Below the pieces are notes generated by a model. That model saw nothing but the letters and a program-made list of their open reading frames with translations, was not told where the DNA came from and did not search any database. DNA of 64,000 bases from the NCBI GenBank assembly GCA_947367565.1, contig CANBEI010000001.1, forward strand, positions 4,976 through 68,975, given 5' to 3'. A program made the translations under genes and the position numbers. Origin of the DNA: an uncultured Candidatus Saccharibacteria bacterium. GTDB lineage: Bacteria > Patescibacteriota > Saccharimonadia > Saccharimonadales > Saccharimonadaceae. Each line of letters begins with the position of its first letter. The stretch's first letter is position 1. Shown here piece by piece: positions 6,145 through 51,735 of the stretch.

Positions 6145-6411
6145 ATGAAAAAGTGGGTTGAGAGAAAAATTGAGACTAAAAATCTTCTCGACAATCCAGG
6201 GCATATGGCTTTTGTCCGTAGCGGGATTGTATATCTTGATGCTAGCGCAGTGTGGTATGTTGGTCGCTATGCTCAGCTATGGTCGCGTACGGCGAATTCA
6301 CCGAATAACGCCTATGACTTATTTATCTACACCGATAATGTCGATCCATCAGCTGGCGGTGGTCGCTACGTCGGTCGCTCCCTCCGCTGCCTCTACCCAG
6401 GTAGTGCCTAA
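6145..6411 (+). CDS. Small protein consisting of a FISUMP-type (Fibrobacter major paralogous domain) C-terminal tail module, copy S1
   Basis: 88-aa ORF: MKKWVERKIETKNLLDNPGH then MAFVRSG...LWSRTANSPNNAY...RYVGRSLRCLYPGSA. Internal ATG at 6205 starts exactly at the module. Confidence 0.5.
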   Translation: MKKWVERKIETKNLLDNPGHMAFVRSGIVYLDASAVWYVGRYAQLWSRTANSPNNAYDLFIYTDNVDPSAGGGRYVGRSLRCLYPGSA

Positions 6412-6580
6412 TGGAGGAAAAGGAAAATGAGAAATAGCTACTTTCAGGACCCGCTTGACCCGTCCCGTCGTTACGGGCGGGTCTGCGCTTCGCTCGCTTC
6501 CCCGTTGGTCGCGAAGATTCCTGAGAGTAGCTATTTCTCATCTCCATTCTTCCATTGGCTTCAGGCACGGCAGCGGAGGG
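6405..6580. repeat. Long imperfect palindrome with conserved GC-rich apical hairpin (structured element, copy A)
   Basis: Arms ATGAGAAATAGCTACTTTCAGGA (6427-6449) and TCCTGAGAGTAGCTATTTCTCAT (6519-6541) pair. Outer arms extend into the 3' ends of both convergent genes. Apical hairpin GACCCG-T-CCCGT-CGTT-ACGGG-CGGGTC lies at 6457-6483. Confidence 0.8.
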
Positions 6581-6755
6581 GGAAACCATAGTAACGACCG
6601 ACACTATTTGATGGGCCGACGCCGGTGGAATATACGCCTAAGTAACGTGCGTTAGTGGACGAGCTAGCCGTACGCGACCAATGATAGCTCCTTTCTCCAA
6701 AGTTGCTAATGTAGCCACTATCCAGATTAGTATATCCACTACGGACAAAAGCCAA
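6561..6755 (-). pseudogene. FISUMP-tail module copy S2, probably lacking a proper start
   Basis: LAFVRSGYTNLDSGYISNFGERSYHWSRTASSSTNARYLGVYSTGVGPSNSVGRYYGFPLRCRA. Upstream in frame is TAG-YYPSGATTIVQLP, where paralogue S5 has MNYYIATSGTSGATTIVQLP. Only a TTG is available as start. Confidence 0.45.
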
Positions 6756-36520: not shown

Positions 36521-37237
36521 ATGAGCGAGCCGTCTAATAGTAGCCCGGTTTCCGGTGCTGCGCAACCAGCAGCTAAGGCTGGGAGTGTGTCAGTGGCGCC
36601 CGACGCACAAGGTACGGATACGAGTCAAGAGTCTAATATTCAGTTTCGATCGTCGGAGATTGGAAAAATCACTGCGCGGCAAGAAGACCCGTTCAAGGAG
36701 CATAAGGCGCGGGCAGCCGAGCGGAAAAAGCAGAACGAGAAAACACGAAAGATGATTTTGATTCTCTTAATCGTAGGCTTACTAATCTTGTTGACTGGCC
36801 TGGGGATCTGGTGGATCATCGCAACGTTGAGCCGGCCGGAACCAGAGGAAATGACTTTTCTGCAGGATGAAACAATCAAGGATATTCAAACCAGCGCGAA
36901 TGAGATCTACAATGCGGAATCAGACGATAGTGACGAACAAAATATTGAAGGCGCAGTAGAGTATTATGAGGAACAGAAGAACGAGGCGGCAACCATTGAT
37001 GATCGCAACCGCATCACAATTGCCGAAATGTTATTTTATGCAGCGAATAGTTACCCGGAGCGTGTAGTTGAAGTCGGAGACCGGATTAATCCTGATGAGT
37101 TACCGCTGGACGAGGCTCTGACTTACTGTAATGCGATGGTAAATGCCTGGAACAGTCTTGGAGAGCCCGAAAATGCGGAGCAGTGCGAGGAGTTTATTGA
37201 AAATAACACAATGATTGATACGAACGGAGTGGGATAG
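36521..37237 (+). CDS. Hypothetical single-pass membrane protein
   Basis: Start moved to MSEPSNSS with GAGGAGG upstream. TM helix ILILLIVGLLILLTGLGIWWIIA. Promoter TTGTCG-17-TATAAT at 36452-36480. Confidence 0.6.
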   Translation: MSEPSNSSPVSGAAQPAAKAGSVSVAPDAQGTDTSQESNIQFRSSEIGKITARQEDPFKEHKARAAERKKQNEKTRKMILILLIVGLLILLTGLGIWWIIATLSRPEPEEMTFLQDETIKDIQTSANEIYNAESDDSDEQNIEGAVEYYEEQKNEAATIDDRNRITIAEMLFYAANSYPERVVEVGDRINPDELPLDEALTYCNAMVNAWNSLGEPENAEQCEEFIENNTMIDTNGVG

Positions 37238-37238
37238 G

Positions 37239-40043
37239 ATGAAAATTGAACAACAAATCGCGAAACGTACTACCCACTACATAGCTATTGCTTTAGCGTT
37301 GATGGCTATTCTGAGCTTGCCAATACTAATAGCGCACCCGCGCCAGGCTCTTGCGGCAGCCAATGCCGATGGCTGCGAGGAGCAAGCGGTTTTAGGCGGC
37401 GTAGCAGTAGGCGGAATCCCAGCAGTCCAAAGTGCCTGTACAAACTGTCGAAATAGCACAGGTCTGCGCTGGGGAGCCCTATGGATTAGCAATGCTGCTG
37501 GGGGTGGTCCAGGCCAAGCATTAGTGCTGGCAAATCGCGAAGTCGGTGGGCGCGATAGGACGGCAACTTTTGATATTCATGGGATGGTATACGGGTGCGG
37601 GCATAATACCGAAGTTCCATACCAAGTTACGGCCGTCGATACGGATTTGCGCGATAGCAGTGGTAGCTCAATTCCAGGAATCACCTACCAGAGCCGTTCG
37701 ATTCCGCGCGGTTATACGCAAACGCAATACGAATGGTCCGGAGGAGGTAGCCTTGGTGGAAATACAATTACCGATTTGGATACATTCTTCTCATCTTCAG
37801 ACAGTACTTGTACTGACTTGTCAAACGGAGCGAAAGACTGTCGACGTACGGTGCAAGTTTATCGATGCTTTAATATCTCGGGGCAAGGTTGCGGTAGCGA
37901 CCCGTCTGAAGTTCGTGCAATTATCAATGATACGACGAATGACGAAAACAAAAACCGTTTTTACTCTAAGTCTACAGTTGAAATTCCTGAGCAGGGTTCA
38001 GATATATCCGGCTACAGTGCGACTAGCGCCGCCGACGGGTCAGCAAGAGTCGAGATTAGTACGGATGAAGCTAATGTGACAGTCAACTTCAAACATGAAT
38101 TATTCTACGAAGTAACTAATCCATTTGGCGCAAATGACACCGTACAGGCGCCGTCAGTAGATTGGAAAATTCGAACGAAATCCGGCACAGAGAGCGGGGA
38201 TGCTTGGGCGAATAAAGACTGGCAGGATAAGCGTGGAGCGACCGGGACTTGGACCTCGCCGAGTGGAAAAGAAAGCCAGAATAGCGGAGCGACAATCGGA
38301 AACGATACGGTGACTGTACAGTTTACGGCAGCTGACAGCGGAAAGACGAAGCGGGTTTGCCGGCGCGTGAGGTATGAGAAAAAATACGTCGACTTCGTCG
38401 TAAATGGTCTGGCCGGAGCAGGTTACAACTGGATTGTCGAAGGCGGTAAAAACGCCGCGAATTCACAGGCCTGTGCCTATATTACATATATGGGTTCAGA
38501 CGAGAACGGCAAGGATCCTCTGGCTCAAGCAAATGTGGGGCTAGGGGCATCAGCGGGATCAGAATACGCAATGCTAGCAGGAGAAGATGCAACGTTGGCA
38601 ATTAGCGGTGCGGCGAACGGAGTCAAAACACGGCGCCTAATTGGCAAGGAAGCAGTGGTATTTAATCATGGCGCAGGAATTTCATATGATGCAAGCCTAG
38701 TCGCAGGGGCAGCGAGATTCAAGGGGACGGATTTATGTAATCTGTTCTGGGGGCGGAATCCGCAACCACTTGCTTGTAGTCGGCTGACGCGCTATACAGT
38801 TGATTATGCGGACAGAGCCGAAAACGGGGCGTCAGGCAGCGACACGACTAGCGAGACGGCGACCGTGGCCGTGCCAGACGATATTGGTCAGAAATATTGC
38901 AACTCGTTCGGCTATAAGTTCCGATATTTTTACGGCATTAAGGCGAATGGTGCGAGCAGCGTAACTTACACCTCGGAACCAGCAAAGGACTACACCTATG
39001 TTGCGCAGCCAGCCTGCCGGACGATTGCCAAAAGGCCGACAACGGCGTTCTGGAATGGGGGTTTACTAGTTTCTAGTCAGGATAATCAAGGTTACAGCAT
39101 TATAATGTCGCTCGCGAAACGGCATTTGATTGATGGGGTCGGACCAACGCTGGGGTATATGACTCCGGCTGGGAGCACCCAGCTAGAAAACGCCGAAGGC
39201 ATACCTGTAGCAGGCGATTCGCGCAATCTCTACGGTTCATGGTCAGAATATCTGGCGGCGTCGACTGGCAAGATGGATAAAAGTAAGGCGATTGCTTCGG
39301 GCGCAAGTATTAGTAATGGTACAGGCTTAACATCGACAAATAACGCAGTTTGTAATAACGCAACTTCGCCTTGGTCGACGAATTCGCCGCTCACGATTTC
39401 CAATGTTGGATGCGACCTAGCGGGTGCTGGATCCAACCTTAGCTCGAGCGCTTTTCGGACGCGATTGACGGCATACCTAGAAAAGGTAGGTAGTGATCCG
39501 GCGGCAGGAGTGACAGTTATTGGTGATAGCAATACAGATATTACGATTAGCAGCGCAAGTGGAAGTTACGTTAATAATTCTGCGAACGATGATACAAATT
39601 ATAATGTACGGAGTTTGCCGCAGACGATTATTTTCGCAAATAATGTCAAAGTAAAAAGTGATGTGACGCGGATTGACGCTTGGATTATTGCGAAAGGCGA
39701 AGTCAATACTTGCGTAGATTATGCAGAAGGCACGGCCGGTGGTACTGGAACGACAAGCGATGGCGTAGGGAATGCGGGTAATGCATGTACGCAGCAGCTA
39801 GTCTTCAACGGGCCAGTAGTAGCGGGCAGCATGAAGTTAAACCGGACGTTCGGAGCAGACTCGCAGGCGCAGATGAGCAGAGGGTTGGCGACGAATGGCG
39901 CCGCTGGGTACTCAACGCGCCAGAGTTCGGCAGAAGTATTTAACTTGCGTGCGGATAGTTACCTCTGGGGCTATGCTCAAGCTTCGAGATATGGCTCGAG
40001 TTATAATGAAGCGTATAGCCGCGAGCTGGCGCCGAGATATTAG
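37239..40043 (+). CDS. Large secreted/surface protein of unknown function (934 aa) with N-terminal signal/anchor
   Basis: MKIEQQIAKRTTHYIAIALALMAILSLPILIAHPRQALA. ATG overlaps the stop of the preceding gene. Gly/Ser/Thr/Asn-rich with scattered Cys pairs. Confidence 0.7.
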   Translation: MKIEQQIAKRTTHYIAIALALMAILSLPILIAHPRQALAAANADGCEEQAVLGGVAVGGIPAVQSACTNCRNSTGLRWGALWISNAAGGGPGQALVLANREVGGRDRTATFDIHGMVYGCGHNTEVPYQVTAVDTDLRDSSGSSIPGITYQSRSIPRGYTQTQYEWSGGGSLGGNTITDLDTFFSSSDSTCTDLSNGAKDCRRTVQVYRCFNISGQGCGSDPSEVRAIINDTTNDENKNRFYSKSTVEIPEQGSDISGYSATSAADGSARVEISTDEANVTVNFKHELFYEVTNPFGANDTVQAPSVDWKIRTKSGTESGDAWANKDWQDKRGATGTWTSPSGKESQNSGATIGNDTVTVQFTAADSGKTKRVCRRVRYEKKYVDFVVNGLAGAGYNWIVEGGKNAANSQACAYITYMGSDENGKDPLAQANVGLGASAGSEYAMLAGEDATLAISGAANGVKTRRLIGKEAVVFNHGAGISYDASLVAGAARFKGTDLCNLFWGRNPQPLACSRLTRYTVDYADRAENGASGSDTTSETATVAVPDDIGQKYCNSFGYKFRYFYGIKANGASSVTYTSEPAKDYTYVAQPACRTIAKRPTTAFWNGGLLVSSQDNQGYSIIMSLAKRHLIDGVGPTLGYMTPAGSTQLENAEGIPVAGDSRNLYGSWSEYLAASTGKMDKSKAIASGASISNGTGLTSTNNAVCNNATSPWSTNSPLTISNVGCDLAGAGSNLSSSAFRTRLTAYLEKVGSDPAAGVTVIGDSNTDITISSASGSYVNNSANDDTNYNVRSLPQTIIFANNVKVKSDVTRIDAWIIAKGEVNTCVDYAEGTAGGTGTTSDGVGNAGNACTQQLVFNGPVVAGSMKLNRTFGADSQAQMSRGLATNGAAGYSTRQSSAEVFNLRADSYLWGYAQASRYGSSYNEAYSRELAPRY

Positions 40044-40081: not shown

Positions 40082-40681
40082 TTAAGCCTTTTTCTTAAAA
40101 TAATCTTTCCCAAGACCGCAAAGCGGACATTTATAGTCGTCTGGCACTTCATCGCCATAGTAAACGTAGCCACAGGCCGTACAAACCCAAGCGGTCTTTC
40201 CCTGCTCACTCTGGGTTTTAGTCAACTTGCCCTTATGTTCTTGGTAATAAGCATAGCTCATAGGCCTCTCATCTGAAAAAACATCGCCCTCTACCATCCG
40301 CCCAATATAAAGCGTATGCGTCTCGGTATCAATCGCATCAACTTTCTCGCAGAGCATGTAGCCGAGCGAAGCTTTGATGACCGGAACGCCATCGGCTTCT
40401 TCGGTCTCGCACTTGGCGAACTTATCACAATCTTTAGAGCAATTAAAGCCAAAAGTCTGGATGATCTCAGGGTCCGCATCTTCGCCAAGGACCGAAAGGG
40501 CGAAGGTGTCGTTTTCGGCGAGTAGCTTATGGGAATGATTCGTCTTCGCAACTGCAACCGAAATCAACGGCTGGTCGCCGGCACTGACACGGGAGACTGC
40601 GTCGACAATACAGCCCCCTCCTTGAGTAGTCAGGACATAGACGCCCTGGGTAATTTTACGCGTAATCTTAGAATTCTTCAT
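40082..40681 (-). CDS. Flavin reductase-like domain fused to C-terminal rubredoxin
   Basis: N-terminal [21 protein letters not shown] and C-terminal [10 protein letters not shown]...YKCPLCG (two CxxC pairs). Start moved to MKNSKI with GGAGG upstream. Confidence 0.8.
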
Positions 40682-40898
40682 TTTCCTCCTTCGAGTCTCA
40701 TATATTGTAGCACGTTTTATGATTTTACGGTGTGCTAAAATGAAGAAGTGGAGGGCAAGCTCCATGGGACCCGACTACAACATCTGAGGTCAAGCTCCAG
40801 TTGTAATAAGTTCCCTTTTGAAAGATCGTGAAGTCAGACTCTCAAAGTCAGAGGAAAAATTGTGAGTGCAGGAATTAGTCTGATTACGGTTAGGCTAA

Positions 40899-41159
40899 GT
40901 GCGGACTGGCTTCTTTTGCTCTAGCGCTAGGTTATGTTTGGCTTTTGTCCGTAGCGGGCATACTAATCTTACCGGCGGTGGTGTCGCCAACGTCGGTAGC
41001 AACGGCTACGACTGGTCGCGTACGGCAAATTCGTCTACCAACGCCTATCGTCTCAACTTCAACCCTACGGATCTCAATATGAATGCGACAAATCGCTACT
41101 GGGGTTTCCCCCTCCGCTGGGTTTGGCCACGGTTTGGTGCCGATCTTTCGGAAAACTGA
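40899..41159 (+). pseudogene. FISUMP-tail module copy S3, degenerate (terminal Cys lost, disrupted 5' region)
   Basis: LAFVRSGHTNLTGGGVANVGSNGYDWSRTANSSTNAYRLNFNPTDLNMNATNRYWGFPLRW (TGC to TGG). An MKKW start homologous to that of S1 lies at 40737 in another frame and terminates after 15 codons. Confidence 0.45.
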
Positions 41160-41168
41160 GTTCAGCAT

Positions 41169-41375
41169 ATGGCTTTTGTCCGTAGCGGGTATGTGAATAT
41201 TACAATCGGTCAAGCTGGTATTATTGGTGGCAATGTCTACGTTCGTTCACGTACTGCTAGCAAAGACACGAACGCTTACATCCTTGCTTCTGCGATTAGT
41301 ATGGTTTATCCATCATATAGCGATGTTCGTTTTTATGGTTTCCCCCTCCGCTGCCTCTACCCAGGTAGTGCCTAA
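41169..41375 (+). CDS. FISUMP-tail module copy S4 (68 aa)
   Basis: MAFVRSGYVNITIGQAGIIGGNVYVRSRTASKDTNAYILASAISMVYPSYSDVRFYGFPLRCLYPGSA. The last 46 nt (41344-41389) are identical to 6380-6425. Confidence 0.5.
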   Translation: MAFVRSGYVNITIGQAGIIGGNVYVRSRTASKDTNAYILASAISMVYPSYSDVRFYGFPLRCLYPGSA

Positions 41376-41659
41376 TGGAGGAAAAGGAAGTATCTGGAGA
41401 TGCTACCGGTACGGCAGCGGAGGGGGAATCCAAAATAAGGAACATCGCTACCGGATGGATTAAGACCAGTGGAGTTAATATAGAGAATATGGGTCTTAGT
41501 AGACGAGCTTGATGTACGAGACCACCAATAACCATTACTTCCGATATACCCGGCTTGATTGTAACTAAGGAATATGCCACCACTACGGACAAAAGCCAAT
41601 GGCAACTGTACTATGGTGGTGGCGCCGGAGGTGCCGGAAGTAGCAATATAATAATTCAT
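41372..41659 (-). CDS. FISUMP-tail module copy S5 (95 aa)
   Basis: MNYYIATSGTSGATTIVQLPLAFVRSGGIFLSYNQAGYIGSNGYWWSRTSSSSTKTHILYINSTGLNPSGSDVPYFGFPLRC... TATAAT lies 3 nt upstream of the ATG. Convergent with S4. Confidence 0.5.
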   Translation of the reverse strand: MNYYIATSGTSGATTIVQLPLAFVRSGGIFLSYNQAGYIGSNGYWWSRTSSSSTKTHILYINSTGLNPSGSDVPYFGFPLRCRTGSISRYFLFLH

Positions 41660-41690
41660 GATATTATAGAGGGCCTACATTAGTATTATT

Positions 41691-41793
41691 TTTTGCGACG
41701 TTAAAATTTTTAGAAAAATTTTAACCTCCGAAGCTATTCTTAACAGAGGTAGTTAGCAAAAGTTAGGTTAGAAAAATTGGATTTTTGTAAGCT
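41691..41793. repeat. 103-nt non-coding repeat R, copy 2
   Basis: 2 mismatches to 6827-6929. One mismatch breaks the palindrome stem (AACGTC to AACCTC). Confidence 0.9.
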
Positions 41794-41876: not shown

Positions 41877-41913
41877 AGACCAAGAAAATGTAAAAAATAC
41901 ATTTTCTTGGTCT
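41877..41913 (-). terminator. Rho-independent terminator directly after tRNA-Leu
   Basis: 16-bp perfect stem AGACCAAGAAAATGTA/TACATTTTCTTGGTCT, followed by T-rich sequence on the minus strand. Confidence 0.85.
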
Positions 41914-41997
41914 GGTGCCCGCGACTGGATTTGAACCAGCACGCCTTGCGGCATATGCTCCTAAGGCATACGTGTATACCAATTTCACCACACGGGC
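41913..41997 (-). tRNA. tRNA-Leu (anticodon UAG), long variable arm, CCA encoded
   Basis: Minus strand reads GCCCGTGTGGTGAAATTGGTATACACGTATGCCTTAGGAGCATATGCCGCAAGGCGTGCTGGTTCAAATCCAGTCGCGGGCACCA. Acceptor stem 7 bp, anticodon loop CTTAGGA, T-loop GGTTCAAATCC. Confidence 0.9.
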
Positions 41998-42074: not shown

Positions 42075-42701
42075 TTAGCGTAAGCTAATAATACTACACT
42101 GCCCAGTTTTGTCCGAAAAAGTCGCGCTAAAGGTCTGGTTATGTTTATCTACCCAGGTATAGCGCTTCGAGGTATCAGTTTTACCGGCCAATGCGCCTTC
42201 GACGCCACCGAGCTGCTTGACCAGCTCGTCGTAAGTGAACGATTCGCCGCTCTCCAACTTTTGTTTCAGCTCAGTGAAAATTGACAAATCAACATCATCA
42301 TTCGCAATTTTGGTCCTATCAATAGTCGCCTGCAAGATATAGCTACTACCGCTCTTCTCGCGTGCGATACTTTCTTTGCTATTAAACTTCCATTTTGCCG
42401 TGCCCGTAGTCTCATCAGTCTCTGGCTCGACGCCAATTACTTCCGTAATTTTCTCAATACTATCGCCAGTTTCGATCTCCTTGATACACTCCGTGATAAC
42501 GCATTTCGTTTCAATCGTTTCCTCTTCGACCGTGTTCAACCCAACATCGGCATTCTCTTCGGCGCTCATGAGCAAATATAGCCCGATTAATGCAACCGCG
42601 GCGATGAGCGCAATCACAAGCGCGACGATCTGCACCGGACTTTTCTTGCTACCTTGGTTTGACGCCTTGGTGCTGGTCTTAGCTTGACTTTCTTTTTCCA
42701 T
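42075..42701 (-). CDS. Hypothetical membrane-anchored protein
   Basis: Start moved to MEKESQAK with AAGGAGG upstream. TM helix IVALVIALIAAVALIGLYLLM. Confidence 0.6.
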   Translation of the reverse strand: MEKESQAKTSTKASNQGSKKSPVQIVALVIALIAAVALIGLYLLMSAEENADVGLNTVEEETIETKCVITECIKEIETGDSIEKITEVIGVEPETDETTGTAKWKFNSKESIAREKSGSSYILQATIDRTKIANDDVDLSIFTELKQKLESGESFTYDELVKQLGGVEGALAGKTDTSKRYTWVDKHNQTFSATFSDKTGQCSIISLR

Positions 42702-42723
42702 TGATACCTCCTTGTTTATACCA

Positions 42724-43308
42724 TCATAACATAGTTTTTTGGTAAATGCCGATACCGGCAGCAGCATAATAACGCGCCGTTAAGAGCTGAAACCCAGCTA
42801 GTTCTAGCTCACCTAAACTTCCCGGATATGACAATACTAAAATCCCGCCCGGCATCAGGAGTTCACCTAGCGCCTCGACTTCTGATTGCTGAAAGTTGTC
42901 ATACGGGGGGTCGGCGATAATGAGATTGAACTTCCCTTGCCAATCTGTCCGCTCAGTCACTGCCGCAACTGCTTCAGCCAAGACCTCCGCCGCAGCTCCG
43001 ATACGCGATAGGTTCTCGCATAGAATTCGCACAACCGCTGGTTGTTGCTCGACGAAAACTACGCTGGTAGCACCCCGACTAAGCGCCTCGATACCGAGTG
43101 CGCCGGAGCCGGCGTAAGCATCCAACACCCGCGCGTCAGCAATCCAGGGTTGCAAAATATTAAACAGGGCATTTTTCTCCCGCGCGCCCATCGGATGAGT
43201 GGCGGAATTATGGGGAGACGTGAGCTTCGTACCTTTGTATTTTCCGGCGATGACGCGGAGATCAGTTGCCGCGGAGCTACCTCTACCGTCGCGCAAAAAG
43301 CGTGTCAT
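42724..43308 (-). CDS. rsmD: 16S rRNA (guanine966-N2)-methyltransferase RsmD
   Basis: LDAYAGSGALGIEALSRGA SAM motif and DPPY. Confidence 0.85.
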   Translation of the reverse strand: MTRFLRDGRGSSAATDLRVIAGKYKGTKLTSPHNSATHPMGAREKNALFNILQPWIADARVLDAYAGSGALGIEALSRGATSVVFVEQQPAVVRILCENLSRIGAAAEVLAEAVAAVTERTDWQGKFNLIIADPPYDNFQQSEVEALGELLMPGGILVLSYPGSLGELELAGFQLLTARYYAAAGIGIYQKTML

Positions 43309-49203: not shown

Positions 49204-50172
49204 CTACTTCCTGCAGGCTTTCTGCCACATACGATTCAGGGATATAAGTAAACTGTGCGTATGTTTGCTGATGAATCCGCGTTCTACGGATGCCGCTAAG
49301 AGCGCCTCGGCTGCCTCCGTCGACATCTTGTCGCCCCAAAAATCGAGACAGGCCGCGCGTAAGTCAGGAGCGTTCAGGTCAAGCATCGTGCGCTGCTCCG
49401 GGTGCCATGGCATCGCCAAGGCAATGTCGAGACGCGCTGCCATTTCTTTCCAGTCGCGTTTCACCTCCGGATGATAAAGCAGATCGTTAAGCAAATCCCT
49501 GCTAAGGAAAATCCGTACAGTGTTCGGTCTCATGCCTGGAAAGAGCAAAAGCTCATGCTTAGATTCATTATGTGGCATGAAGTCGTAGCGCTCAAAGCCG
49601 AGCTCCTGCTGCACGCGTTCACAAACTGCCTGGAATAATTCCACCCGACCGTCCGGCTCTGCGACCTCGTTGTCCCATGAACCAGTCTGATTCTGCGGCG
49701 AAAACGGGCAGCCTGTCTCATCGAGCTGACACTCCGCGCAATTCTCGGCGCTCGGTATATGCCCGCTGGAACGACGAAACGTACGACAACTCAAGATCTG
49801 CAGATAACGGCTGATACGCTCGGTATCATGAATGCCGGTTTCTGCCTCCAATGGTTGCCAGTAGGCACCACTTAGCAGTCCGCCACCGCCCCAGTAATAG
49901 CCGTAGTTCCAGTGCGACTGCGCAATGTATGCGTCGACCGTGATCTCTCCAGATTCCAGTTTGCAATAATCTGCAAAGGGCAACGCCAGCATCAGCGGTC
50001 CACGATAATGCATCGCGAGTACCGGGTAGCCCGGTTGCAAAGCCTGGATATAATAATGCCAGCCCGTGCCGTCTTCCCCGATATAATGGATATGGTCTGC
50101 ACCGAGATGAAAACCGATTAACTCTGTAACTTTCTCGCTCAATTCCTGAATAAATGATAATGTAGCTTCCAT
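49204..50172 (-). CDS. Hypothetical protein (322 aa)
   Basis: GAGGAGG upstream of the ATG. Terminator AAACCGC...GCGGTTT at 49146-49174. No recognisable motif apart from the Cys cluster NCAECQLDETGC. Confidence 0.6.
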   Translation of the reverse strand: MEATLSFIQELSEKVTELIGFHLGADHIHYIGEDGTGWHYYIQALQPGYPVLAMHYRGPLMLALPFADYCKLESGEITVDAYIAQSHWNYGYYWGGGGLLSGAYWQPLEAETGIHDTERISRYLQILSCRTFRRSSGHIPSAENCAECQLDETGCPFSPQNQTGSWDNEVAEPDGRVELFQAVCERVQQELGFERYDFMPHNESKHELLLFPGMRPNTVRIFLSRDLLNDLLYHPEVKRDWKEMAARLDIALAMPWHPEQRTMLDLNAPDLRAACLDFWGDKMSTEAAEALLAASVERGFISKHTHSLLISLNRMWQKACRK

Positions 50173-50498: not shown

Positions 50499-50693
50499 TT
50501 GGCTTTTGTCCGTAGTGGATGGACTAATATTGATACTACTAATGAAGGCGCCGTGCGGGTCATTGGTCAATACGGCGACTATTGGTCGCGTACGGCTAGC
50601 TCATCTACGAACGCCTATCGTCTAATCACGAGCCCTACAGGCGTCAATTTGTCAAACAGCAGCGATCGTTGGGCTGGTCTCTCCCTACGCTAA
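50499..50693 (+). pseudogene. FISUMP-tail module copy S6 with premature stop replacing the conserved Cys codon
   Basis: (TTG)AFVRSGWTNIDTTNEGAVRVIGQYGDYWSRTASSSTNAYRLITSPTGVNLSNSSDRWAGLSLR-stop. CGC TAA CTC CAC CCA aligns with CGC TGC CTC TAC CCA of S1/S4. Terminator at about 50722-50748. Confidence 0.45.
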
Positions 50694-50948: not shown

Positions 50949-50966
50949 GGCTTTTGTCCGTAGTGG
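50949..50966 (+). repeat. Isolated 5' anchor block of the module family (fragment S7)
   Basis: GGCTTTTGTCCGTAGTGG is identical to the 5' block of the other copies, but no module follows. Confidence 0.6.
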
Positions 50967-51051: not shown

Positions 51052-51735
51052 TTAAGAGGCGTCTCCGGTATCAATAACAACGACTTCGCTATGTTTGTTA
51101 GTGTGCGCCAGTTGGCTCTTGCGTTCAGGATAGCTAACGTGATAGATGAAAAACACCGTTTCATCCTCGCGCATTTTGTCTTTCGCCTGCATAGCAGCGC
51201 GAAGCGTGATCTTCGGGGACTCAAGGCAAGTTACACCGTCTGGCATGATATAACTATGCGGGATTGCATAATATGCGGATTTATACTTATTCAGCATCCG
51301 ATAGATTGCAACCTCGAGCTCGTCATACGACATGCCCAGATAAACCGTGTACGCCCCATCGTCGCATCCAGCCGGCCCATCAGCCTTGAGATTACTAAGC
51401 CTATCCTCTCGCGTCTGGTCGCTGCGAAACAAAACATAGAAGCCGTCGGCATACTCCTTGGAGTTACACTCATCAATCTCGCAATGGAAAATTGATCTGA
51501 AAACTCTAATGATTAGATGATTAATGCCGGTGGCTAAGCCCAGGCTGAATACCAGAAAAAATACGACCACAAGCTGATAGGCAACCTCCGGAATCTTGTC
51601 ATGAGGTATATCACGACAGAGCACTGTAATACCGCCCAAGCTAATAAAGAGACTCAAAATCATTCCTATTATAGCCGAGAGGAATATAGTGATAACCGTC
51701 AGGATGTCGTATGCTACAGATTTGGTTTTAGTCAT
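51052..51735 (-). CDS. Hypothetical membrane protein (two N-terminal TM helices plus soluble domain)
   Basis: 227-aa ORF with AAGGAGGG upstream and its own consensus promoter. Confidence 0.6.
   Translation of the reverse strand: MTKTKSVAYDILTVITIFLSAIIGMILSLFISLGGITVLCRDIPHDKIPEVAYQLVVVFFLVFSLGLATGINHLIIRVFRSIFHCEIDECNSKEYADGFYVLFRSDQTREDRLSNLKADGPAGCDDGAYTVYLGMSYDELEVAIYRMLNKYKSAYYAIPHSYIMPDGVTCLESPKITLRAAMQAKDKMREDETVFFIYHVSYPERKSQLAHTNKHSEVVVIDTGDAS

Follow-up and report, generated by a model that had tools for sequence, protein, structure and literature searches.

The seven repeat copies (S1 to S7) in the window, by which we mean the whole 64-kb stretch of Saccharibacteria DNA analysed here, are in our estimate with about 80% probability components of a diversity-generating retroelement (DGR) in a gut Saccharibacteria lineage, with a FISUMP/CLec2-type ligand-binding domain as its target. 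In the mechanism we propose, a DGR-type reverse transcriptase (RT) encoded outside the window would copy template RNA into cDNA while misreading adenines, and the cDNA would replace the stretch between a 5' anchor (GGCTTTTGTCCGTAGYGG, encoding AFVRSG) and a 3' anchor in recipient copies, which would explain why the anchors are invariant at the nucleotide level and the cores variable. The GC-rich 3' anchor (GGTTTCCCCCTCCGCTGC, encoding GFPLRC) would act like an IMH. S3 with its flanks would be one of about ten dispersed template RNA genes, each with a structured 5' leader and a clamp helix bracketing the template repeat (TR), and these would presumably serve a single RT in trans. S1, S2, S4, S5 and S6 would be truncated recipient-type cassettes composed of a variable region (VR) and a 3' recognition flank, changing rarely and by whole-core replacement or recombination at the anchors; S7 would be a deletion remnant.

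An anchored repeat family related to FISUMP domains

The cassettes, the anchor matches and a neighbouring tRNA gene occupy the following positions in the window (the S3 unit is listed further below).

6145 to 6411, forward: S1 cassette, starting at the anchor (6207)
6561 to 6755, reverse: S2 cassette, with upstream extension PSGATTIVQLPL; converges on S1
41169 to 41375, forward: S4 variable-region cassette, beginning exactly at the 5' anchor
41372 to 41659, reverse: S5 cassette, with 21-codon upstream extension MNYYIATSGTSGATTIVQLPL; converges on S4 and overlaps its end
50499 to 50693, forward: S6 cassette of the longer 191-nt class, with TAA in place of the Cys codon and a 3' anchor that has diverged
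50949 to 50966, forward: S7, 5' anchor only, the rest of the cassette being deleted in the window
6207 (forward), 6753 (reverse), 40940 (forward), 41171 (forward), 41597 (reverse), 50501 (forward) and 50949 (forward): 5' anchor matches
41913 to 41997, reverse: tRNA-Leu(TAG), then a terminator-like hairpin; a neighbour outside the system

The preliminary description of this DNA had claimed a repeat family of seven copies, and the 18-nt 5' anchor bears this out, with seven exact matches in the 64-kb window against a chance expectation of 0.09, and zero extra matches at up to 3 mismatches across the whole window. The 3' anchor has five matches at 0-3 mismatches, in S1, S2, S3, S4 and S5 (chance expectation 0.05), and S6 carries a diverged version of it. 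The central block TGGTCGCGTACGGC occurs exactly in S1, S2, S3 and S6 and with 3 mismatches in S5, and was not found in S4; at 3 mismatches its matches by themselves do not exceed chance. The peptide pattern AFVRSG...WSRTA.SSTNAY...GFPLRC was seen in the window ORFs of the family, and their translations show no signal-peptide-like N-terminus, as had been stated. S1/S2 and S4/S5 are convergent pairs whose 3' ends form 51-52-nt imperfect inverted repeats. The proximity of the second locus to tRNA-Leu had been taken as a sign of an island, a suggestion that found no support: the locus has the identical position in the three genomes compared, and no integrase or recombinase occurs among the ORFs scanned beside the three loci.

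The assignment of the family to FISUMP domains is supported by profile alignment. In hhalign comparisons with six Fib_succ_major domains validated by Pfam, the family profile aligned to their C-terminal half (99.65%, E 4.5e-25), family positions 19-139 falling on domain columns 130-246 of 246. A profile search returned 4647 matches, and in the long ones that were checked the matched region scores above the PF09603 threshold (P0177, 70.1 bits; P0103, 92.5 bits; P0076, 86 bits). The direct HMM scan that the preliminary description had proposed as a check came out negative, with no FISUMP match (PF09603, TIGR02145) to the six window peptides in Pfam or NCBIfam even at E<=10. By hhalign the variable region is the last ~65 residues of a FISUMP-type domain, the C-terminal placement expected of a DGR variable region, and Fib_succ_major/DUF1566-type (CLec2) variable regions are a published class of DGR targets (PMC5758913).

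The window copies comprise the last 65-95 residues of the domain, and none has a complete domain with a secretion or lipoprotein signal. A full-length relative, P0064, has 538 aa and ends ...VVQLPLAFVRSG...GFPVRCLFLGK; tblastn with this protein found no N-terminal domain part in the window, confirming the reported absence there. A longer expression gene had been predicted to lie elsewhere, and we found such genes in the form of P0064 and of a 140-aa target in sister genomes. AlphaFold2 applied to the 141-aa target with a 26-sequence alignment gave an unusable model (pLDDT 39) and did not confirm a C-type-lectin fold, and a PDB sequence profile search with the family alignment returned chance-level matches only.

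Reverse transcriptase and template RNA genes

Each of three sister Saccharibacteria MAGs contains dozens of copies of the 5' anchor, and two of these MAGs share 96-97% flank identity with the window. The public genome scan returned 8-kb blocks, so that the counts per sister genome are lower bounds: at least 10, 8 and 9 template-like copies, at least 27, 24 and 19 cassettes, and at least 30-40 family copies in total. In L065 and L087, a 405-aa RT with the motifs IGNLTSQ and YVDD lies ~200 nt upstream of a template-like copy. It matches Pfam RVT_1 at 35.8 bits (cut-off 29.6). Among solved structures it comes closest to 8ub7 (328-aa reverse transcriptase, E 7.7e-21), which we take to be the Bordetella DGR enzyme and which scores far better than Drt2, group II intron or retron RTs. 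In both L087 and L065 the start of the RT is overlapped, by 4 nt, by a 325-aa ORF that has no Pfam match and is not recognisable as Avd or HRDC. Neither an RT nor an accessory ORF is present within the 64-kb window, and the window's own genome presumably has the RT at another site. Sequence of at least 1.7 kb on the RT side was available for 24 of 31 template-like units, and the RT was present in 2 of those 24; one RT apparently serves about ten scattered templates per genome.

Covariation supports the clamp helix of S3 (40760-41148), a template RNA gene whose leader is conserved. Its parts are these.

40760 to 40939, forward: template RNA 5' leader, defined by the 26-unit alignment, the RNAalifold consensus and pair counts
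Within 40760 to 40939, forward: conserved CTCCATGGGA
40785 to 40798, forward: leader hairpin with conserved loop TGAGGTCAAGCTCCA
40821 to 40828, forward: 5' half of the clamp, AAAGATCG
Within 40760 to 40939, forward: GAAGT/GCTTC helix and a third covarying hairpin
40940 to 41120, forward: S3 template repeat, 179-181 nt, with 10 Asn codons, ending in CCGCTGG (IMH*-like)
41136 to 41148, forward: 3' clamp GGTGCCGATCTTT, near-invariant across 26 units

In the 3' clamp, CGATCTTT pairs with AAAGATCG at 40821-40828. The leader motifs are unique within the window, and the 3' clamp has its sole exact match there. We aligned 26 template-like units and derived the consensus with RNAalifold: pairing holds in 92.2% of scaffold cells, where slid controls reach 35-48%, and double changes occur in 137 cells (25-43 in the controls). 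Compensatory changes occur at 23 scaffold pairs, and none of 500 shuffles reached the observed values. As in other DGR templates, the repeat is Asn(AAY)-rich and non-coding, with 10-18 Asn codons in each of 31 template-like copies, and its 3' end (IMH*) is unlike the target IMH: S3 ends in CCGCTGG-GTT and the cassettes in CCGCTGC-CTCTACCC. S3 has no start codon context. Its ortholog, L008 2773, is 2 substitutions apart, both synonymous in the VR frame. The preliminary description had called S3 decayed; its Trp codon and 'broken' 5' end are instead the normal boundaries of a template-repeat unit. S3 is probably transcribed and used as a template. An Rfam scan of 40600-41750 matched no family and gave just one chance miRNA match, and a sigma-70 consensus promoter scan found no strict site for S3 and none for S5. 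An extended -10 (TGcTAAAAT, ~40733-40741) was spotted near the S3 unit by eye only.

Adenine-directed variation and the cassettes

Adenine-specific change is evident in the family as a whole. At the nucleotide level, two templates make up the mosaic L005, which shows 14 A-site changes against 1 of another kind; L042 has 25 A-site changes versus 2 others and L038 has 18 versus 3. For these three, taking C, G or T as the free base gave a 3-4 times worse fit. Orthologous RT-adjacent templates are 6 A-site changes and 1 other apart. The ~140-aa target gene lies outside the window and is present in sister genomes in many variants, which we drew from ENA assemblies via protein search. At the codon level, 9 of the 14 testable target variants are explained by adenine-only changes from one or two templates with 0-2 unexplained residues (0 for P0007, P0013, P0015, P0020 and P0023), at least 8 different templates being in use across the variants. 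Adding cassettes as donors improved the fit in 0 of 14, and for most variants the closest relative in the genome is template-like rather than a cassette. The programmed diversification that had been read from invariant anchors and variable cores is borne out; the donation from silent cassettes that was then favoured found no support in these 14 variants. A DGR remnant had been offered as the second alternative; it named the right kind of diversity-generating system, which is active in the lineage rather than a remnant.

The adenine relation between TR and VR that holds for the family is weak in S1 and missing from S2, S4, S5 and S6. S1 shows a weak adenine bias against templates L045/L055 (27/60 mismatches at template A, p=0.011); S2, S4, S5 and S6 show none against any template compared, and in their mosaic model A as the free base was no better than the C, G or T controls. 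Most dispersed cassettes of the sister genomes likewise have no clean adenine signature. A plain alignment of the seven copies is unlike one TR with several VRs because the differences fall at all bases. Whole-length TR/VR comparison gave a modest adenine bias, and clean signatures needed half-wise and mosaic models. Such models still fail for the window's own cassettes.

Several features of single cassettes bear on their history. S2, which had been described as lacking an ATG, has a TTG start codon and 11 homologous codons upstream; its ortholog L011 228 is 98% identical, and by sequence comparison its tail RCRA* looks to be derived from RCLYPGSA* through a 12-nt deletion. S4 ends in the native tail RCLYPGSA*, followed by the conserved 3' flank; its site is empty in one sister genome and holds a different core in another. 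The S5 extension is homologous to residues 53-73 of the 140-aa target; the S5 core is 99% identical in P0001, with a different tail, and recurs in another context in L073. The reported change of TGC to TAA in S6 is corroborated by the ortholog L057 523, which retains TGC at that position. S7 had been described as an anchor block only, and its ortholog L057 75 continues as a normal cassette (AFVRSGYMHLANGYIRNAGYYGDY, at least 18 residues), which places a deletion in the window.

Cassette cores move between loci unmutated, and this part of the earlier cassette idea survives. In four cases a single genome has the identical core at two of its loci, S1's core turns up elsewhere in two sister genomes (in three strains, three different loci or contexts), and strain differences break precisely at the anchors. 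Identical cores at two loci call for a non-mutagenic copying step, which is absent from canonical DGR homing. Four assemblies of one species, independent of each other, have the same locus-1 pair, with 0 differences in 310 nt, so these two cassettes are not now being diversified. The window cassettes may still be able to receive cDNA.

The cassettes are also constrained as coding sequence. All 70 are free of in-frame stops from one anchor to the other, their pN/pS in the variable-region frame is 0.25 (3.4 and 1.1 in the remaining frames), and the third codon position has ~2.5 times the substitution rate of the first two, in a set that was found through the exact anchor and hence carries an ascertainment bias. 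A strong Shine-Dalgarno sequence precedes the start in 0/59 and 4/27 cassettes, against 23/48 long ORFs, and S4 is among those that have none. Judging from these patterns, S1, S2, S4, S5 and S6 are kept in frame under moderate purifying selection and have no ribosome-binding sites. An alternative genetic code was dismissed by inspection, the long ORFs being intact under table 11, as were integron cassettes and MITE/REP elements, given the frame-specific constraint and the protein homology.

The cassettes could be inert fragments of former DGR targets left by duplication and deletion, which would suit their restriction to the last 65-95 residues of a domain with ~240 aligned columns, the missing Shine-Dalgarno and adenine signatures, the stop in S6, the stump S7 and the invariance of the locus-1 pair across four samples. 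We regard this as unlikely, given 70 stop-free cassettes of 70, a pN/pS of 0.25 confined to the variable-region frame and a 5' anchor that is exact in 7/7 copies although the cores differ by ~40%; the upstream block, moreover, shifts in concert by species (TGQSGATNIVKLPL versus SGATTIVQLPL). Antigenic variation of the pilS/vls type, with silent donors copied by anchor recombination into one expressed FISUMP gene, has in its favour that the cassettes are promoterless, 5'-truncated, open copies between conserved blocks, with frame-specific constraint and almost no Shine-Dalgarno sequences. The recurring cores, with the S1 core in three contexts, and the strain breakpoints at anchors point the same way, as do the sharing of only the first half of S5 with L078 1228 and the 95% identity of P0036, a target variant of another length class, to cassette L076 7651 / L078 4982. 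The expressed variants, however, gained nothing in fit from cassettes as donors and in 9 of 14 cases trace to templates, an RT and structured template RNAs exist, and partial DGR homing also predicts mosaics and whole-core replacement; we consider this reading quite unlikely.

Two further accounts give the short ORFs or their arrangement a role of their own. Translated FISUMP tails of 65-95 aa might act alone, diversified slowly or never: these reading frames are intact and under constraint, gene prediction picks them out in many assemblies, and S5-type copies share a conserved ATG start (MNYY). Yet almost none has a Shine-Dalgarno sequence and none a signal peptide, many have TTG or CTG as their start or lack any start codon at the anchor, and the C-terminal quarter to third of a FISUMP domain would hardly fold alone, which makes such mini-proteins very unlikely. 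In a shufflon-like arrangement, a recombinase would flip the convergent pairs between their inverted 5' anchors and so swap C-termini. The anchors within S1/S2 and S4/S5 do form 19-nt inverted repeats, 511 and 391 nt apart, and one partner per pair alone has an upstream coding extension, but the scan beside the three loci gave no recombinase, and the orientation is the same at orthologous loci of three genomes. The S1 core has a different tail in its other context, so what is exchanged is the inter-anchor core rather than the inverted segment as a whole, and this account is scarcely credible.

Within the DGR reading that we prefer, a two-tier form of diversification, joining a trans-served RT and dispersed templates to a silent, selection-maintained store of cassettes, is a tentative possibility to which we give clearly less than an even chance. 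In its first tier, one RT would use some ten dispersed, structurally uniform template RNA genes in trans, each with its own distinct scaffold sequence, and the same FISUMP-type gene could be rewritten by any one of them or by two successively. In the second, about 25 silent cassettes would keep their anchors and swap cores by anchor-guided recombination, forming a store of earlier variants or a set of spare recipients. If this were true, the RNA leader and clamp would constitute a recognition module of DGR RTs that is both new and definable.

Comparison with known systems

The closest parallel is the Legionella LdtA DGR (Wu et al. 2018, PMC5758913; CLec2: DUF1566/DUF823/Fib_succ_major). In both, the RT carries IGxxxSQ and YxDD motifs, the template repeat is rich in Asn(AAC), and template and variable region differ in an adenine-specific way. 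In both, too, the variable region forms the C-terminal end of a FISUMP/Lcl_C-type domain, its 3' boundary is GC-rich, IMH-like and unlike between template and target, and an inverted repeat lies downstream of it. The present system differs in that each genome has 8-10 template units or more, mostly remote from the RT and each with a conserved structured leader and clamp, and in that several of them write one target. Its main target has only ~140 aa and no signal peptide, truncated variable-region cassettes number in the dozens, and the ORF beside the RT, with 325 aa and no Pfam match, is not a recognisable Avd or HRDC.

DGRs of the candidate phyla radiation are reportedly the subject of work by Paul et al. 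in 2017. Those systems resemble the present one in being cellular DGRs of small-genome episymbionts that presumably diversify a surface-binding protein. A Patescibacteria-restricted DGR clade 2 has been defined (Roux et al. 2021, PMC8144416), in surveys that examined RT neighbourhoods and state that remote targets were missed (PMC8144416). The literature searched contains no description of dispersed template RNA genes or of the cassette family in gut Saccharibacteria. Remote targets are known from the Treponema denticola DGR, and Stenotrophomonas SKA14 has two TRs and six VRs in DUF1566 proteins (PMC5758913, PMC6642488 for both). Such multi-target and multi-template DGRs likewise combine one RT with several variable regions, some remote, and more than one template repeat has been reported computationally. 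The lineage studied here differs in its larger scale, with ~10 templates and ~25 cassettes per genome, in templates that are scattered across contigs and have a common covarying RNA scaffold, and in the alternation of different templates at one target, including two-template mosaics. Its genome is, we assume, about 1 Mb in size.

Neisseria pilE/pilS, Borrelia vlsE and Mycoplasma genitalium MgPa share with the window many promoterless, 5'-truncated, stop-free copies of one gene's variable part, conserved blocks around variable cores, and cores that sit at different loci in different strains. They differ in the source of new expressed-gene variants, which here trace to adenine-mutagenised RNA templates and not to cassettes, and in the presence here of an RT.

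To our knowledge, DGRs are the only natural targeted protein hypermutation system in prokaryotes, and they are being developed into directed-evolution tools. How the RT recognises template RNA has been worked out mainly for the Bordetella phage element, and some 30 natural variants of one template RNA with covarying leader and clamp helices offer a candidate recognition module. The lineage shows that templates can work far from the RT, and several templates per target multiply the accessible sequence space beyond the adenine positions. The constrained, apparently untranslated cassettes could point to a storage or recombination layer atop the DGR. Saccharibacteria are obligate episymbionts, and a hypervariable lectin-like protein is a candidate for host attachment that would make host-range adaptation testable.

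Anchored repeats and their copy classes

The 18-nt 5' anchor GGCTTTTGTCCGTAGYGG has seven perfect matches in the window against a chance expectation of 0.09, and the 3' block GGTTTCCCCCTCCGCTGC matches five times at 0–3 mismatches, confirming the repeat family with invariant blocks proposed in the preliminary description. Allowing up to three mismatches in the 5' anchor added no match in the window. The central block is perfect in four window copies, the cores between the blocks show ~40% divergence spread over all four bases, and the block-bearing ORFs are 64–95 aa long.

Exact matches of the 5' anchor in the window (pattern search)
6207, + strand: S1, class C cassette
6753, - strand: S2, class A cassette
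40940, + strand: S3, class B copy (template)
41171, + strand: S4, class C cassette
41597, - strand: S5, class A cassette
50501, + strand: S6, class C cassette
50949, + strand: S7, anchor-only stump

Scanning one genome per species for the exact anchor, a requirement that favours conserved anchors, yielded dozens of copies apiece for three Saccharibacteria MAGs (MGBC126680, SRR4116659_bin.70 and SRP287540_co1_55) and copies in a few other assemblies; two of the three MAGs are 96–97% identical to the window outside the cassettes. Family copies fall into three context classes, with at least 10, 8 and 9 class B copies and at least 27, 24 and 19 cassettes per genome.

Context classes of family copies
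Class A: cassettes with 10–20 codons of constant region (...GATTIVQLPL) before the anchor; S2 and S5
Class B: copies with 10–18 Asn codons and conserved non-coding flanks, without upstream coding homology; S3
Class C: cassettes starting exactly at the anchor and ending in the native tail RCLYPGSA*, followed by the 3' flank; S1, S4 and S6

S1 and S2 are convergent, as are S4 and S5, and the 3' ends within each pair make 51–52-nt imperfect inverted repeats. Because the spacers and 3' parts are palindromic (6420–6449 / 6519–6548, 30 nt, 87%; 41305–41355 / 41413–41463, 51 nt, 84%), each pair is one large imperfect inverted duplication of cassette and 3' flank; might such duplications form a cruciform used in homing? 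S5 lies 250 nt from tRNA-Leu, and the idea of an island inserted at this gene is unsupported because the same arrangement is syntenic in three genomes. Beside the cassette loci lie several ORFs without a Pfam match: 37215–40043 (+), of 942 aa with a hydrophobic N-terminal segment, and 42075–42767, 49204–50172 and 51052–51735 (all -).

Template RNA units and a reverse transcriptase

We aligned 26 class B units together with their flanks (190 nt on the 5' side, 90 nt on the 3' side) and recovered a common architecture.

Elements of the class B alignment, 5' to 3'
Leader motif: conserved TCCATGGGA
Hairpin: invariant loop TGAGGTCAAGCTCCA on a covarying stem
Helix: AAAGATCGTGAAGT, its GAAGT pairing with an ACTTC ~85 nt further on; GGAGT/ACTCC also occurs
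Third hairpin: covarying, followed by the template repeat
3' end: invariant GGTGCCGATCTTT after the template repeat; CGATCTTT complementary to upstream AAAGATCG

The RNAalifold consensus reproduces this leader and clamp structure. Paired cells amount to 92.2%, against 35–48% with slid partners, and double-change cells to 137 against 25–43; 23 pairs show compensatory change, and none of 500 shuffles reached the observed values. Judged by this covariation, class B copies are structured RNA genes. The CGATCTTT/AAAGATCG helix halves may act as a clamp around the template, although covariation says little or nothing on the clamp or on a possible anchor–anchor pairing, both being (near-)invariant.

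The window unit, S3 with its flanks (40760–41148), carries all class B motifs, each unique in the window, and matches no Rfam family. S3 had been read as decayed; its missing ATG and its Trp for Cys are normal template boundaries. Its ortholog in MGBC126680 is two substitutions apart, both silent in the variable-region frame, and we infer that S3 is transcribed. Among public-genome blocks, L018 (816–1278) holds a template-like copy with Asn-rich repeat and 3' clamp, without the conserved 5' leader, that is, a 5'-truncated unit. Block L050 (~620–1480; CALBZW010000017), orthologous to window 40940–41600, has an S3-type repeat in which an internal 39-nt unit is tandemly triplicated, and at the place of S4 a ~200-nt MITE-like insertion bounded by the inverted repeats AAGCCTCTAGCCTAACTCTGGAAT...ATTCCAGAGTTAGGCTAGAGGCTT.

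Two sister genomes have, ~200 nt upstream of a class B copy and in the same orientation, an ORF of 405 aa that contains IGNLTSQ and YVDD and scores above the Pfam RVT_1 threshold. Among solved structures its nearest relative is 8ub7 (E 7.7e-21), a reverse transcriptase of 328 aa that far outscores Drt2, group II intron and retron enzymes and that we take to be the Bordetella enzyme of a diversity-generating retroelement (DGR). Another ORF, of 325 aa (L087 2615–3592, -, and its equivalent in L065), shares 4 nt with the start of the reverse transcriptase; it is 100% identical between the two genomes, has no Pfam match and is a candidate non-Avd accessory protein. The window encodes neither ORF, and the reverse transcriptase was found beside only 2 of the 24 class B units (31 in total) with at least 1.7 kb of sequence on the relevant side.

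Adenine mutagenesis, the target and the cassettes

Compared over their whole length with the best class B copy, cassettes show only a modest pooled excess of template-adenine mismatches (per-base rate 0.49 at A, 0.28–0.34 at other bases), and clean adenine signatures need half-wise or mosaic models. The public-genome copy L005 6780 is such a mosaic, its first 73 nt from one template and the rest from another in the same genome, with 14 A-site changes and 1 other; in L042 the counts are 25 and 2 over three segments, in L038 18 and 3. When C, G or T replaces A as the free base, the cost of the mosaic model rises 3–4-fold. The orthologous templates adjacent to the two reverse transcriptases, which are 99.75% identical, differ by AAC AAC AAC to GGC TAC TAC, by AAC to TGC near the 3' end and by one other change; thus, template-like copies can also receive cDNA.

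The strongest evidence for adenine mutagenesis comes from a 140-aa gene outside the window, whose 16 variants from different metagenomes have almost identical N-termini and very different cores. For nine of the 14 testable variants, a single template or a mosaic of two accounts for all but 0–2 residues when codons may change at adenines only, and these variants draw on at least eight different templates. At the 5' end of this ORF in block L001 (10040–10072), a perfect 15-bp hairpin (GCTTTTACCAAAATT/AATTTTGGTAAAAGC) lies within the annotated N-terminus (AFTKIKILVKA), downstream of a AGGAGGTGA site, and the annotated start may not be the true one; the first ~9 residues of the metagenomic variant P0005 differ, by eye as if through a ~25-nt deletion there.

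Among the window cassettes, adenine bias is marginal in S1 (27 of its 60 mismatches to the L045/L055 template fall at A, p=0.011) and absent from S2, S4, S5 and S6, which are fitted no better by an A mosaic model than by controls; dispersed cassettes of sister genomes are adenine-clean in only ~8 of 48. At the site orthologous to locus 1 (S1/S2) in another species, four independent assemblies carry an identical pair (0 differences in 310 nt), so that these cassettes, unlike the 140-aa gene, are stable on population time scales. Constraint argues against their being inert relics, as do the exact anchors: none of the 70 cassettes that have both anchors contains an in-frame stop, and across eight independent orthologous pairs pN/pS is 0.25 when the variable-region frame is read (synonymous excess, p=1.9e-5), compared with 3.4 and 1.1 for the two alternatives. 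Third codon positions change ~2.5 times as often as first and second, base class allowed for. These selection estimates are based on ~40 substitutions. A reading as mini-proteins is countered by missing ribosome-binding sites and signals (in a crude test, potential starts have a strong Shine-Dalgarno before them in none of 59 class A copies, 4 of 27 class C copies and 23 of 48 long window ORFs) and by how little of the fold there is, only a quarter to a third of the FISUMP-type domain. Cassettes look like neither junk nor ordinary genes.

Cores move between loci. Orthologous loci with flanks 92–97% identical (locus 1 against L062; locus 2, S3–S5, against L050 and L008; locus 3, S6/S7, against L057) hold unrelated cores with breakpoints at the anchors. 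The S1 core recurs at 97–99% identity in three genomes, occupying another site in each and spanning both context classes, and in four cases a single genome carries 100% identical cores at two loci that differ in their flanks. The first half of S5 is also present in L078 1228, a copy with an Asn-rich second half. Partial homing would yield such mosaics and core replacements; the identical duplicates require a non-mutagenic copying step, most simply recombination through the anchors. A shufflon is unlikely, given that the flanking ORFs scanned include no recombinase, orientation is conserved and only the core is exchanged. Of the silent-cassette idea favoured earlier, non-mutagenic core copying survives, but donation to an expressed gene is unsupported: adding cassettes improved the fit of 0 of 14 target variants, the variant P0036 being the single suggestive case.

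Domain identity, known retroelements and distribution

Pfam and NCBIfam scans of six window peptides returned no FISUMP model even at E<=10, so the FISUMP assignment fails on the direct HMM scan its proposer had named, but profile comparison makes the homology real. A word-indexed search gave 49 relatives of 75–163 aa, the longer ones with a common constant N-terminal part ...ICPSGTGGNWVLPLSGTANNNVSGSFYNLLNQYNATSGTTGATTIVQLPL ahead of AFVRSG. Their profile matched 4647 of 1.84 billion representatives, many of them long multi-domain proteins; those tested carry Pfam Fib_succ_major above threshold, often with Lcl_C, precisely at the matched region. With hhalign, the family aligned to six Fib_succ_major domains at 99.65% probability (E 4.5e-25), positions 19–139 covering the last 117 of 246 domain columns. 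These profiles indicate real homology to the C-terminal part of a FISUMP-type domain. A full-length relative, P0064 (538 aa), is hydrophobic at its N-terminus and contains the whole domain, which ends in ...VVQLPLAFVRSG...GFPVRCLFLGK; the N-terminal part, described earlier as missing throughout, is indeed absent from the window.

Variable regions of the Fib_succ_major/DUF1566 type ('CLec2') have been published as a class of DGR target, and DGRs typically have a GC-rich IMH (the 3' boundary in the target), its template counterpart IMH* and an inverted repeat further downstream (PMC5758913). The 5' anchor fits the 5' homology and the 3' anchor the IMH of a DGR, and the target domain is probably C-type-lectin-like (CLec2 class) by homology. 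The system is a DGR with a known target-domain class, in a phylum where DGRs are known. Since multi-template DGRs have been reported computationally, for example with two template repeats in Stenotrophomonas (PMC6642488), it is a DGR variant and not a new kind. Within a limited literature search, it differs from described DGRs in the number and dispersal of template units, their common covarying RNA scaffold, the several templates serving one target, and the large family of truncated, constrained cassettes.

The 10–14 codons before the anchor change in concert by species, reading SGATTIVQLPL in the window and two close MAGs and TGQSGATNIVKLPL in SRP287540_co1_55 (L019-type blocks); the template repeat does not reach this block, so it must be homogenised, or selected on, by a process other than homing. 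A template unit and cassettes also occur on a 46-kb contig of the Mediterraneibacter agrestimuris DSM 111629 isolate assembly (NZ_CALPDG010000030.1; L017, L094), and likewise on contigs binned as Lachnospiraceae or Roseburia (L012, L014, L042, L051). All of these except L012 share 80–97% identical stretches with Saccharibacteria MAG loci, reflecting either contamination or mis-binning, or a hint of a co-cultured episymbiont and its host.
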